Of a DNA stretch of 64,000 nt, positions 16,615 to 19,407 are shown piece after piece. Positions within the stretch are counted from its first letter, which is position 1. Every line of letters starts with the position of its first letter. The notes under the pieces were generated by a model. That model made no database searches, was not told the DNA's origin, and saw only the letters and a program-made list of their open reading frames with translations. The stretch is from contig CANJLI010000004.1 in assembly GCA_947475005.1 (NCBI GenBank), positions 1,942-65,941 on the forward strand, in the 5' to 3' direction. The stretch comes from Deltaproteobacteria bacterium (GTDB lineage Bacteria > Bdellovibrionota_B > Oligoflexia > Oligoflexales > Bog-1112). Made by a program: the position numbers and the translations under genes.

Positions 16615-16902
16615 ATGGCGGGGAAAAATCACGCACACGCAACTGTGGGGCTGTACTGGAAATTCGCTGGAATTTTGTGCTTCATTACCTTCATTGAATG
16701 GGCGGTGTTTAAGAGTGATACCTTTCGAAGCAATGCCAAAATGATGGTACCCCTTCTCTTGGGGCTATCTGCAATCAAATTTGTCATGGTCTGTGGATGG
16801 TACATGCACTTGCGCTACGACCCCAGTGTTCTAGCCAAGATGTTTGGCTTTGGTCTGGGCTTGGCTGCTCTCGTCTATACGATTATGCATCTGGCTCTGT
16901 AG
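16615..16902 (+). CDS. ctaF: Cytochrome c oxidase subunit IV (prokaryotic CtaF family)
   Basis: ORF 16549..16902, with the start at ATG 16615 (MAGKNHAH). It has three TM helices, and KFVMVCGWYMHL matches the FMHL block of bacterial subunit IV. Confidence 0.75.
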   Translation: MAGKNHAHATVGLYWKFAGILCFITFIEWAVFKSDTFRSNAKMMVPLLLGLSAIKFVMVCGWYMHLRYDPSVLAKMFGFGLGLAALVYTIMHLAL

Positions 16903-17422
16903 ATGAAGTGTCGTTGTGGGTGGGTTTGATGAAGCTGAAGGTTTCACACACCTCTCGAACGATCCCTTCTAGAACATCCGGTGCATCAGTTACCTTACCG
17001 CCCTTGATCAAAAGTATATTTCCAATCTTAACGGGGTCAGGTACTGCTCTACTTGGGGTGGGCTCGGGAGTCGGTAGACGTTGTAGGGCAGGTGTAACGG
17101 TAGCGTGACGCCATGAACCATGGAGGTTGTTTCCTATTTGGATAAGGCTCGCAAAGTCATACTGCCCGTGCAGAACCGAAGTAACTAACTCAACGTGAGC
17201 GGTGTCGGTAATGGCAATGGGGGTATATTGCTTTTTATCTCCATGGTCACAGCTCAGTACACGCAACATGGGATCTTGAGTTCCAAGTTGGAAGTAAAAC
17301 TCCCCTCCTACTGGTCCCCCTCCTGTGCGATGGATTTGAAAAGACTCCAAGCGCTGAGCAAAAAGTGAGGCGGCTTGTAGCAGGCCTAGGGTGAGAGCGG
17401 TGCTCTTCATCAATCTTTTCAT
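16883..17422 (-). CDS. Small secreted protein, paralogue 1 of a four-member tandem family
   Basis: It has the signal MKRLMKSTALTLGLLQAASLFA. It shares the blocks F-x-[VI]-x-R-x-GGG, a mid Cys, [SI]-[VI]-L-x-G-x-Y, G-[ST]-W, [IL]-K-[DG]-G and a C-terminal Cys with the next three genes. Confidence 0.75.
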   Translation of the reverse strand: MKRLMKSTALTLGLLQAASLFAQRLESFQIHRTGGGPVGGEFYFQLGTQDPMLRVLSCDHGDKKQYTPIAITDTAHVELVTSVLHGQYDFASLIQIGNNLHGSWRHATVTPALQRLPTPEPTPSRAVPDPVKIGNILLIKGGKVTDAPDVLEGIVREVCETFSFIKPTHNDTSSTEPDA

Positions 17423-17451
17423 GGCATTTTCCTCTAGTTAATAAAACCAAG

Positions 17452-17480
17452 AGTTATGCCTGGATGAAGAGGTGTGGCAA
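17452..17480 (-). promoter_or_regulatory. Putative sigma70-type promoter of paralogue 1
   Basis: The minus strand reads TTGCCA-N17-ATAACT. It lies further upstream of the ATG than in the other three paralogues. Confidence 0.35.
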
Positions 17481-17530
17481 GAAATAAGTGAAGAGAGTGG
17501 GGGCGCTAGATTACGATCATTCACCTGGCG

Positions 17531-17989
17531 TTATAACGCTTCGGTATGAACGGGCTGGCACATTTCTTGAACGAGACTAAGTAAGGTCTCGAATGCATGT
17601 GTTGGTTGTCCGTCTTTGAGAAAAACAGGGTAACCTCGAACCTCAACCTTGTCTTGTCCAGCTATGGTGTACGCAGCATGGACCCATGAACCGGTAGGGA
17701 GGCGTCTCTGTGGAGGGGTTTCGTTGGTAATGGTATAGTCCCCATGTAGAATGGAAGCAACCAGAGCACTCTGAGTCGGATCAGTCATTTCAAGGGTTGT
17801 ATTTTGGGCTTGAAAGTTACAACGCATCATATGCAGCATGGGAGTTCCACTTTCGGATAGGACAAATTCTCCTTGTGCTTGTCCCCCTCCATCACGGCGC
17901 ACTTCAAAAGACTGCAAAGGCACAGCAAAAAGTGAGGTGGCTTGCAGTAGACCCAATACGAGCACAGACCGATGCAGAAATCTTTTCAT
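17531..17989 (-). CDS. Small secreted protein, paralogue 2
   Basis: The signal MKRFLHRSVLVLGLLQATSLFA is identical to that of paralogue 3, and the family blocks are conserved. Confidence 0.8.
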   Translation of the reverse strand: MKRFLHRSVLVLGLLQATSLFAVPLQSFEVRRDGGGQAQGEFVLSESGTPMLHMMRCNFQAQNTTLEMTDPTQSALVASILHGDYTITNETPPQRRLPTGSWVHAAYTIAGQDKVEVRGYPVFLKDGQPTHAFETLLSLVQEMCQPVHTEAL

Positions 17990-18020
17990 GGCATTTTCCT
18001 TTATAGGAAGTTATGCCTAT

Positions 18021-18049
18021 ATTTATGCATATATATCAGTATGTTACAA
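18021..18049 (-). promoter_or_regulatory. Putative sigma70-type promoter of paralogue 2
   Basis: The minus strand reads TTGTAA-N17-ATAAAT, followed by a conserved leader with AAGGAAAA before the ATG. Confidence 0.45.
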
Positions 18050-18125
18050 GATGTAAAGAGAGGGGCGGGGATGTCCGTCACCCCAAAGTCCTGAAGGGAG
18101 ATCTCGTCCCTTAGCTAAAGTTGGC

Positions 18126-18590
18126 TCAGTTGTCGCCGGAGAAAAGGATTTTGCACTGTTTGTGAATGGCAGTTTCCAGCACACCCATTGCATTGGTTAC
18201 TTTGCCGTCTTTAATCAAGAGGGGGCGCTTCACCTCCACCTTCACGGTACCTTGAGAGTAGCCAGCGCTTAGCCATGTACCCGTCATGCTTCGGCTGGGA
18301 CTGCGGTCGCTTGCAATGGTGTAGTCGCCTTGCAGAATGGAGTGTACCAACATTTGCAGCTCAGCATTGGCTATCTCAAAGGATTGCTTTACATCTCGAA
18401 ATCCACAACGCATCACCTTCATTTCAGGCTTCGCCTCTTCAGAGAGGACAAAGTGAGCATGCACGGATCCACCTCCAATGCGCACCACTTCAAAATACTG
18501 CAAAATCGCAGGTCTTGCAGAAATAGCAAAAAGTGATGTGGCTTGCAGCAGACCCAATACGAGCACAGACCGATGCAGAAATCTTTTCAT
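18126..18590 (-). CDS. Small secreted protein, paralogue 3
   Basis: A 154-aa ORF that is highly similar along its full length to paralogue 4. Confidence 0.8.
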   Translation of the reverse strand: MKRFLHRSVLVLGLLQATSLFAISARPAILQYFEVVRIGGGSVHAHFVLSEEAKPEMKVMRCGFRDVKQSFEIANAELQMLVHSILQGDYTIASDRSPSRSMTGTWLSAGYSQGTVKVEVKRPLLIKDGKVTNAMGVLETAIHKQCKILFSGDN

Positions 18591-18620
18591 GGCATTTTCC
18601 TTTATGTGGAGTTATGCCAT

Positions 18621-18649
18621 ATTTATGCATAGATAACAGGTAGTTGCAA
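18621..18649 (-). promoter_or_regulatory. Putative sigma70-type promoter of paralogue 3
   Basis: The minus strand reads TTGCAA-N17-ATAAAT, with a conserved leader and AAGGAAAA RBS. Confidence 0.45.
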
Positions 18650-18675
18650 GATATAAAGTGAAGAAGCGGGGACGT

Positions 18676-18765
18676 CCGTCATCCCAAGGCCCCGAAGGGG
18701 CCGTATGGGATCCCTGCATTTTTATGGAGATCCCATACGGCTGCTGCGCAGCCTTGGGATGACGG
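18676..18765. repeat. A-family repeat, full 90-bp copy (nested palindrome / four-helix element)
   Basis: The structure is CCGTCATCCCAAGG | CCCCGAAGGGG | CCGTATGGGATC | 16-nt loop | GATCCCATACGG | CTGCTGCGCAG | CCTTGGGATGACGG. Confidence 0.9.
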
Positions 18766-18775
18766 ATGAAATCGG

Positions 18776-18863
18776 GGGATGAGATCGGGGACAGCTACCG
18801 AATTAGGGAGTTGAGGCAATTGCCTCAACTCCCTAATTCGGTAGCTGTCCCCGATCTCATCCC
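18776..18863. repeat. B-family long hairpin (variant arms)
   Basis: An 88-bp palindrome: GGGATGAGATCGGGGACAGCTACCGAATTAGGGAGTTGAGGCAA|TTGCCTCAACTCCCTAATTCGGTAGCTGTCCCCGATCTCATCCC. Confidence 0.9.
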
Positions 18864-18879
18864 AATCGCTAAAATCGTC

Positions 18880-19347
18880 TCAGTTGTCGCCAGGGAAAAG
18901 GATTGTGCACTGCTCGCGAATGGCAGCGTCCAGCACTCCCAGTGCATTGGTTACTTTGCCGTCCTTGATCAACAGGGGGCGGGGGACATTAACTTTCACG
19001 GTGCCCCGAGAGTAGCCAGCACTCAGCCATGTACCGGTAGGGAGGTTACTTTGCGGCGTACGATCATTGGCAATGGTATATTCCCCTTGCAGAATGGATG
19101 CTACTACCGCTTGTAGCTCAGGATTGGTAATTGCAAAGGATTGCTTCACATCTCTAAATTGGCAGTGAAGCACTTTCATTACAGGCTTCGCTTCTTTGGA
19201 CATGACAAAATGGGCATGCAGGGATCCACCTCCGCTGCGGAGCACTTCAAAATACTGCAAAGGCACAGGTCTTGCAGAAATGGCAAAAAGTGACGTGGCT
19301 TGTAGCAGACCCCATACGAGAACGGACCGGTTCACAAATCGTCTCAT
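18880..19347 (-). CDS. Small secreted protein, paralogue 4
   Basis: A 155-aa ORF with the signal MRRFVNRSVLVWGLLQATSLFA, collinear with paralogue 3. Confidence 0.8.
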   Translation of the reverse strand: MRRFVNRSVLVWGLLQATSLFAISARPVPLQYFEVLRSGGGSLHAHFVMSKEAKPVMKVLHCQFRDVKQSFAITNPELQAVVASILQGEYTIANDRTPQSNLPTGTWLSAGYSRGTVKVNVPRPLLIKDGKVTNALGVLDAAIREQCTILFPGDN

Positions 19348-19378
19348 GGCATTTTCCTTTGTGGGAAGTAATGCCCAT

Positions 19379-19407
19379 ATTTATGCATAGATAAAAGGAG
19401 GTTGCAA
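19379..19407 (-). promoter_or_regulatory. Putative sigma70-type promoter of paralogue 4
   Basis: The minus strand reads TTGCAA-N17-ATAAAT, with a conserved leader and AAGGAAAA RBS. Confidence 0.45.

Follow-up and report, generated by a model that had tools for sequence, protein, structure and literature searches.

Four tandem, putatively exported paralogues beside the cox operon of an oligoflexial bacterium belong to an unnamed and extremely rare protein family

Exported paralogues arranged in tandem behind a conserved 5′ module are already known as a type of gene family, and the variable lipoproteins Vlp and Vsp of Mycoplasma, in which a conserved 5′ untranslated region and signal peptide precede a divergent mature part, are among the closest described systems for the locus presented here. 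A second point of comparison is provided by Ivy, MliC/PliC, ecotin, SSI and BLIP, which are small exported proteins that act by binding, many of them being disulfide-stabilized. The locus in question is an array of four co-oriented genes, whose products are here called par1 to par4, in a 64,000-nucleotide stretch (the window) of the genome assembly of a deltaproteobacterium placed within the Oligoflexia (Oligoflexales, Bog-1112; GCA_947475005.1, contig CANJLI010000004.1, positions 1,942 to 65,941). The array is like the Vlp/Vsp systems in its tandem, co-oriented copies, in the putative promoter and leader that each copy has to itself, in its near-identical signal peptide and in its divergent mature regions. 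It is unlike them in that no lipobox Cys follows the leader, in that there is neither a homopolymer or short-repeat tract nor an invertible promoter for phase variation, and in that the mature regions are predicted to form one globular fold rather than repeats. The reading favoured here, at a probability of roughly 0.4, is that of a lineage-specific tandem expansion of an exported, disulfide-stapled, non-enzymatic binding scaffold, the copies of which share their regulation and differ in their surfaces. The protein family as such has no name, is extremely rare and has yet to be placed structurally.

The four genes are intact open reading frames (ORFs) on the minus strand of the window (16883-19347) that encode proteins of 179, 152, 154 and 155 amino acids (aa). 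The E values given are those of a profile hidden Markov model (HMM).

16883..17422, minus strand: paralogue 1 (par1), 179 aa, the most divergent copy; profile HMM E = 8e-38
17531..17989, minus strand: paralogue 2 (par2), 152 aa; profile HMM E = 2e-40
18126..18590, minus strand: paralogue 3 (par3), 154 aa, the copy used for structure models
18880..19347, minus strand: paralogue 4 (par4), 155 aa, 75 % identical to par3

In a full-length alignment, pairwise identity among the four proteins ranges from 35 to 75 %, and the columns common to all are R-x-GGG, a central Cys, [IV]L-x-G, G-[ST]-W and a C-terminal Cys. Scored against a profile of 20 family sequences, the four reach E = 1e-38 to 1e-45 and keep the invariant Cys, Trp and Cys of that family; a profile search of all six frames found no fifth copy in the window. 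Each leader, as read from the sequence, consists of a basic stretch and about 15 hydrophobic residues and ends in SLFA. Since the residue that follows is I, V or Q and the first Cys does not come before residue 58, there is no lipobox, and the leaders read as Sec-type rather than lipoprotein signals, so that the proteins would leave via the Sec pathway. DsbD is encoded in the window, which means that a periplasmic thiol-disulfide system exists. A preliminary description of this DNA, made from its sequence, had proposed four co-oriented signal-peptide paralogues of these lengths, with common motifs and a disulfide pair; the ORFs, the alignment and the leaders agree with the paralogy and the leaders so described, the alignment confirms the R-x-GGG, central Cys and C-terminal Cys columns among the motifs, and the disulfide is probable. 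Par1 retains R-x-GGG, both Cys and the Trp, and is set apart by CDH for CNF, HGSW for TGTW, a Pro-rich insertion of 15 aa and an extended C terminus.

Outside the window, the family is very sparsely represented. A word-seeded search of 5.8 billion proteins recovered only the four proteins and one fragment, and an exhaustive HMMER profile search of 1.84 billion cluster representatives gave 24 matches at E ≤ 1e-3. These matches include three of the window's own proteins (par4 having no entry of its own) and three near-relatives found in the same sample series; three long repetitive ones (522-1303 aa, 5-8 short stretches each) were judged spurious, which leaves about 17 distant relatives, 140-206 aa long, that share the leader and the motifs. 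Just one relative bears an organism name, i.e. Silvanigrella sp. (Bdellovibrionota, Oligoflexia). No further members came to light when GTDB genomes, JGI metagenomes and IMG/VR were scanned. The N-terminal leader is basic and hydrophobic in all family members and has no lipobox. In one distant relative of 376 aa (P0018), the domain is C-terminal and stands behind a long Ala/Lys/Asp-rich linker and a lipoprotein-like N terminus, an arrangement which, on sequence, indicates that the domain can also be tethered. Within the alignment of 20 sequences, the only invariant columns are Cys62, Trp106 and Cys146 (par3 numbering), the nearly invariant ones being R37, G39-41, I85, L86, G104 and P123, and a conserved set of catalytic-type residues was not found. 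As a working definition, the family may be described as an exported domain of about 125 aa with the signature R-x-GGG ... C ... IL ... G-x-W ... P ... C. Because the strictly conserved residues are of turn and core type (R-x-GGG, IL, G-x-W, P and the two Cys) and include no catalytic-type set, the family is read as a non-enzymatic binding scaffold.

The tandem arrangement is likewise restricted in its distribution. Contigs of several assemblies carry this array with identical proteins, and the family gene is single-copy in the five relative loci that were fetched (L005, L009 and L014-L016), three of which (L005, L009 and L016) carry several kb of flank with differing neighbours, while L014 and L015 are short contigs. 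The family is missing at the corresponding places in two relatives, one with a CoxA at least 90 % identical and the other with a PurH 69 % identical, the latter being the closest non-self PurH. A 625-nt contig (L004) obtained from a different sample of this project has a par2-like gene (73 % DNA and 63 % aa identity) that immediately adjoins a 98.6 % identical cox flank, and par1 is absent from it; since its initial 193 nt are of unrelated sequence, the contig may be chimeric. Judged by this contig, there are hints of strain-level turnover of the array. A 153-aa family member (1670-2131) that shares 46 % identity with par3 is located downstream of leuS on a 2.2-kb contig of the same sample series (L011). 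The leader of the array is not present upstream of this gene, and the contig also contains a repeat element 90 % identical to window positions 63301-63348. The gene is a candidate for a fifth copy, dispersed elsewhere in this genome or in that of a sister. Another family member (L015/L017) was found on a 1.3-kb contig of GCA_013565675.1, an assembly with contig numbering above 1.2 million, where it is probably bacterial DNA inside a eukaryote genome assembly.

No database supplies a name for the domain. Pfam and NCBIfam gave no match at E ≤ 1, the Pfam scan covering 20 family members, and PADLOC, PHROGs and a profile search of PDB sequences gave none for the family, as would be expected from the preliminary description, which had recognized no known domain. 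An AlphaFold model of full-length par3, built on the 20-sequence alignment, reached a predicted local distance difference test score (pLDDT) of 88.2 and a predicted template modelling score (pTM) of 0.79, with the leader as a detached low-confidence helix; for the mature domain, with leader and tail trimmed, the values were 93.7 and 0.87. The predicted order of elements is four strands, a helix, four strands and a helix, and the mature domain of about 125 aa would thus be an eight-stranded antiparallel sheet with two helices, with Cys62 closing strand 3 and Cys146 closing the last helix, a pair that would hold the fold together in the oxidizing periplasm. An internal repeat was not detected when the N-terminal and C-terminal halves were aligned with hhalign (probability 0.2 %). 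Foldseek searches of the PDB with two models, here read from the best 50 listed matches of each, returned nothing below E = 1e-3, and a BFVD structure search returned nothing significant; the fold, as modelled, is confidently predicted and matches no solved structure. Checking the models for inhibitor or immunity folds, as had been proposed with the preliminary description, produced a confident model, and no known inhibitor fold was among those best 50 matches. More specifically, none of the folds of Ivy, MliC/PliC, ecotin, SSI and BLIP appeared among the best 50 listed matches of either search, and the family matched none of their models (PF08816, PF09864, PF03974, PF00720 and PF07467, respectively) in Pfam/NCBIfam at E ≤ 1 or in PDB sequences. 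The array also differs from such periplasmic inhibitors in that no cognate enzyme is encoded near it.

The best Foldseek match was Mago nashi (1p27_A, 2hyi_A and 1hl6; E 0.01-0.03, probability 0.66-0.87), at a template modelling (TM) score of 0.28-0.33 and a root-mean-square deviation of about 8.5 Å. Mago nashi is like the modelled family in its flat antiparallel sheet with helices on one face and in its pseudo-twofold arrangement, and unlike it in being eukaryotic, nuclear/cytosolic and devoid of a signal peptide or disulfide. Membership of the Mago nashi family (PF02792) was rejected, there being no Pfam match in 20 members and a TM score below 0.5; hhalign of the family profile against human MAGOH gave a probability of 0.1 %. 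On the models, then, the resemblance is one of build and not of family. Among the next-best neighbours are Whirly/PUR-type proteins, SsgA/SsgB and EspG chaperones (probability 0.15-0.54, TM 0.2-0.33), which are cytoplasmic binders of nucleic acid or protein and differ from the family in that respect; Whirly/PUR repeats have the same order of elements, four strands and a helix occurring twice. LolA and lipocalins also follow at low probability and, together with UnaG and LptA, bring up the idea that the proteins carry a small ligand, hydrophobic or otherwise, in the periplasm and hold it between sheet and helices, in the manner of LolA, lipocalins or helix-grip proteins, with the copies having become specialized. 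A ligand site would be in keeping with the combination of sheet and helices and with the invariant Arg and Trp. However, the LolA, lipocalin, UnaG and LptA matches have probabilities of at most 0.25 and TM scores of at most 0.24, and transporter or biosynthetic genes are not consistently nearby, so that a carrier role must be considered improbable.

The second major feature of the array lies upstream of its genes. About 70 nt preceding par2-4 are conserved as TTG[CT]AA-N17-ATAAAT ... AAAGGAAAATGCC-ATG or, in detail, as TCTTG[CT]AAC, a 17-nt spacer, ATAAAT and GGCAT[AT]ACT..CC....AAAGGAAAATGCC-ATG, and par1 keeps only AGAGGAAAATGCC-ATG, an upstream GGCAT and TTGCCA.

17990..18062, minus strand: putative promoter/leader of par2, TTGTAA-N17-ATAAAT, with near-palindrome TATATGCATAAATA and a 28-nt hairpin, GGCAU..AUGCC, at 17990-18017
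18591..18665, minus strand: putative promoter/leader of par3, TTGCAA-N17-ATAAAT; hairpin at 18591-18618
19348..19422, minus strand: putative promoter/leader of par4, TTGCAA-N17-ATAAAT; hairpin at 19348-19375
17423..17500, minus strand: looser leader of par1, AGAGGAAAATGCC-ATG, TTGCCA and an upstream GGCAU able to close a longer hairpin

Between any two of the three modules there are 11-14 differences per 70 nt, as against differences at 46-60 % of the synonymous sites of the mature parts (binomial P ≤ 6e-8), a degree of conservation that exceeds the neutral expectation by far. The common leader of about 70 bp in par2-4, its looser form in par1 and its conservation well beyond that of the mature part, all of which had been noted in the preliminary description, are accordingly upheld. 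The three upstream pairwise distances being much the same, the block has the look of a constrained sequence and not of a recent copy. Promoter activity is presumed from the motifs of the par2-4 modules and, each copy having a module of its own, the copies are probably transcribed separately and under the same control. The -10-like element lies within a near-palindrome, TATCTATGCATAAATA, that occurs only at these three places in the window. In the form TAT(C/A)TATGCATAAATA, it is located at 18019-18036, 18619-18636 and 19377-19394 and overlaps the putative -10 elements of par2-4. When up to two mismatches are allowed, six of the seven matches in the window fall at the par2-4 promoters, with 1.2 expected by chance; an operator for a dimeric regulator is one possible explanation. 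The 28 nt before the ATG fold as a hairpin (GGCAU..AUGCC plus UUCC/GGAA) that pairs the GGA of the Shine-Dalgarno sequence and would in this way sequester the ribosome-binding site. The predicted energies are -9 to -11 kcal/mol at 37 °C, with the GGA more than 90 % paired from 15 to 45 °C, and an RNA thermometer was dropped as a candidate because the hairpins are predicted to stay closed across that range. The leaders match no family in Rfam. Tandem Repeats Finder reported only three two-copy repeats of 20-27 nt (in the par2 leader, the par3 coding region and the par4-par3 spacer), and no inverted repeats flanking a promoter were found.

Downstream of the ATG, the likeness between copies probably has a different origin, at least in par2 and par3. 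Their first 22 residues are identical, in keeping with the identical signal peptides reported earlier, and are encoded with just two synonymous nucleotide differences. Over the first 69 nt of coding sequence, nine sites group par2 with par3 and one groups par3 with par4, whereas in the mature region 113 sites group par3 with par4, which are mutually closest, and 29 group par2 with par3 (Fisher p = 1.4e-5 for the flip between signal-peptide and mature regions). From about -15 to +63, par2 and par3 are separated by the two synonymous differences alone, as opposed to roughly 45 % divergence downstream.

17927..18004, minus strand: putative gene-conversion tract, par2 side, about -15 to +63, two differences from par3
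18528..18605, minus strand: putative gene-conversion tract, par3 side, the counterpart of the par2 side

For the identical signal peptides of par2 and par3, the best explanation is a short tract of conversion or recombination between adjacent copies, and the check for gene conversion at the 5′ ends that had been proposed earlier has thus lent its support to such a tract. The 5′ ends of the array would, by this account, be held alike by purifying selection and by the par2/par3 conversion tract together.

The mature parts, for their part, give no evidence of diversifying selection. By the Nei-Gojobori method (NG86), the ratio of nonsynonymous to synonymous substitution (dN/dS) is 0.25 for par3/par4, the only unsaturated pair (dS 0.62), and 0.45-0.63 for the other pairs, in which a dS of 0.8-1.4 is at or near saturation. 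In sliding windows of 25 codons, par3/par4 never exceed 0.55, and no pair and no such window has a dN/dS above 1, although pairwise values for old paralogues have little power for site-specific positive selection. The mature parts appear, therefore, to evolve under purifying rather than positive selection, and the diversifying selection on the mature domain that had been suspected in the preliminary description finds no support in any pair or window. That suspicion belonged to a broader proposal, in which an arms race drives the array and its products are inhibitors, immunity proteins or host- or prey-interaction factors under diversifying or balancing selection, the 5′ module being kept for expression and export. 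The conserved 5′ module, the divergent mature part and the disulfide scaffold would fit such a scenario. The variant contig, with a 73 % identical par2-like gene beside a 98.6 % identical cox flank, suggests rapid turnover or old alleles, although the contig is short, starts with unrelated sequence and is possibly chimeric. A eukaryote-like protein with an in-between-RING (IBR) domain is encoded in the genome, the Silvanigrella relative adjoins a TcdA/TcdB-type toxin gene region, and the closely related genome with the CoxA at least 90 % identical lacks the array. However, besides the dN/dS values, the missing inhibitor folds (within the matches listed) and the lack of a match to the defence or immunity models of PADLOC speak against an arms race, as does the fact that toxin, hydrolase and secretion-system genes are not adjacent. 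The surroundings do not resemble those of a toxin-immunity array, consisting as they do of the cox operon, two unannotated signal-peptide paralogues and the pur operon, and the neighbouring genes tested carry no toxin or enzyme domain and no PADLOC match. Consequently, an arms race is viewed as unlikely. A bolder version, in which a previously unseen fold of exported proteins has been amplified into polymorphic, strain-variable binders, such as inhibitors of the bacterium's own, host or prey extracytoplasmic enzymes or host-binding factors, with the hairpin, by occluding the ribosome-binding site, switching on all copies together upon a single signal, is viewed as more doubtful still.

The same ratios bear on a further possibility, namely that the array consists of duplicates in decay, with one or two copies functional, the rest becoming pseudogenes, and the 5′ likeness left over from recent duplication or conversion. 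Values of 0.45-0.63 in most pairs could mean relaxed constraint, and par1, with its looser promoter, altered motifs, insertion and read-through into the cox IV gene, has the look of a failing copy and is absent from the variant contig. And yet all four frames are intact and keep R-x-GGG and the family-invariant Cys, Trp and Cys, par3 and par4 still hold their low ratio at a dS of 0.62, and the conservation of the upstream modules, in which recent conversion has left no sign, goes far beyond that of synonymous sites. Decay of most of the array is therefore given little chance.

The array converges on a caa3-type cox operon (13022-16902, plus strand), and the 3′ end of par1 overlaps that of the cox subunit IV gene, the last of the operon, by 20 nt. 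It is the extended C terminus of par1 that enters the cox IV 3′ end (16883-16902); in the variant contig (552-625), the matching sequence is non-coding and follows the stop of the par2-like gene. This arrangement suggests either that par1 lost its original stop or that a copy was removed by unequal crossing-over. Given that the array abuts the cox operon and overlaps its last gene, the four proteins might be thought of as accessory factors of the adjacent caa3-type cytochrome c oxidase, serving in assembly or metal delivery. However, a convergent array is not co-transcribed with cox, relatives in other genomes are not near cox genes, the genome whose CoxA is at least 90 % identical has unrelated ORFs in the slot, and a conserved His, Met or CxxxC metal motif was not found, all of which nearly excludes an oxidase function.

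On its other side, the array diverges from two unrelated paralogous genes (19497-21544, plus strand), beyond which come purE and the pur operon. The two genes (19497-20633 and 20681-21544) encode proteins of 378 and 287 aa that are 44-47 % identical and have hydrophobic N-terminal leaders with a Cys close by. Neither has a significant match in Pfam, PADLOC or PHROG (best E 0.02), and no homologue was present in any related locus fetched. A link between the array and this AT-rich pair was dropped because the pair lacks homologues near family members elsewhere. It is this pair, with a guanine-plus-cytosine (GC) content of 0.42, and not the four-gene array, that forms the AT-rich stretch of the region. 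The array has a GC of 0.491, compared with 0.483 for the window, 0.492 for cox and 0.470 for pur, and the AT-richer island once placed between cox and pur cannot, as a result, be the array. No tRNA genes occur in the window, and an AT-rich island or a tRNA-linked insertion was rejected in view of this and of the normal GC of the array.

The spacer between par4 and par3 contains two long palindromes.

18675..18863, no strand assigned: two long palindromes in the par4-par3 spacer, one with 38-nt arms 87 % complementary, the other an 88-nt perfect palindrome

The imperfect palindrome (18675-18766; 38-nt arms, 87 % complementarity) adjoins the perfect one (18776-18863), which has a second copy at 22042-22117 (76-nt perfect core), between purE and purH. 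Four positions per arm distinguish one copy from the other, and as each change is mirrored in the opposite arm, both are 100 % self-complementary. The 88-nt palindrome might represent a repeat element or else a structure maintained by selection, and the spacer palindromes may act as transcript-end hairpins or be repeat elements; tested against miRNA-precursor models, the 88-nt palindrome stayed below thresholds as a generic hairpin only. Repeat pieces of the GGGATGACGG type, related to the imperfect palindrome, are also found upstream of par2 and par3 and at 63301-63348. Elsewhere in the window, a 238-aa protein with an IBR domain of the RBR E3-ligase type, which is regarded as a eukaryote-like feature, is encoded at 10329-11045 (minus strand), and a related genome also encodes an ankyrin/EF-hand glutaminase.

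When all of this is considered together, the expansion of an exported, disulfide-stapled binding scaffold remains the favoured reading, with a variable surface that would give each copy a different extracytoplasmic partner. A number of points weigh against it. A sigma-70 scan did not call the promoters of par2-4, because ATAAAT lacks the consensus A at position 2, and the -10 element is weak. The hairpins have only modest z-scores (-0.9 to -2.7), and their 3′ arm does not vary, which leaves no room for a test by covariation. The proximity of Cys62 and Cys146 is deduced from their co-conservation only, and the invariant Arg could be a ligand-binding or catalytic residue. Par1, strongly diverged, may be losing its function; the neighbouring genes suggest no target or partner; and since the best structural neighbours of the models reach a TM score of only about 0.3, the fold permits no functional transfer.

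The array bears on no long-standing question, and nothing about it is, so far, mechanistically surprising. It is nevertheless a compact case of mosaic evolution, in which a 5′ module appears to be held constant by selection and conversion while mature domains drift under constraint. The family amounts to about 20 sequence clusters among billions of proteins, and its confidently predicted structure is without a solved counterpart. If the favoured reading is true, the locus would offer a clean entry into a protein family named by no database, and its four natural variants of one scaffold, under the same control module, would be a handy set for determining structure and finding partners.

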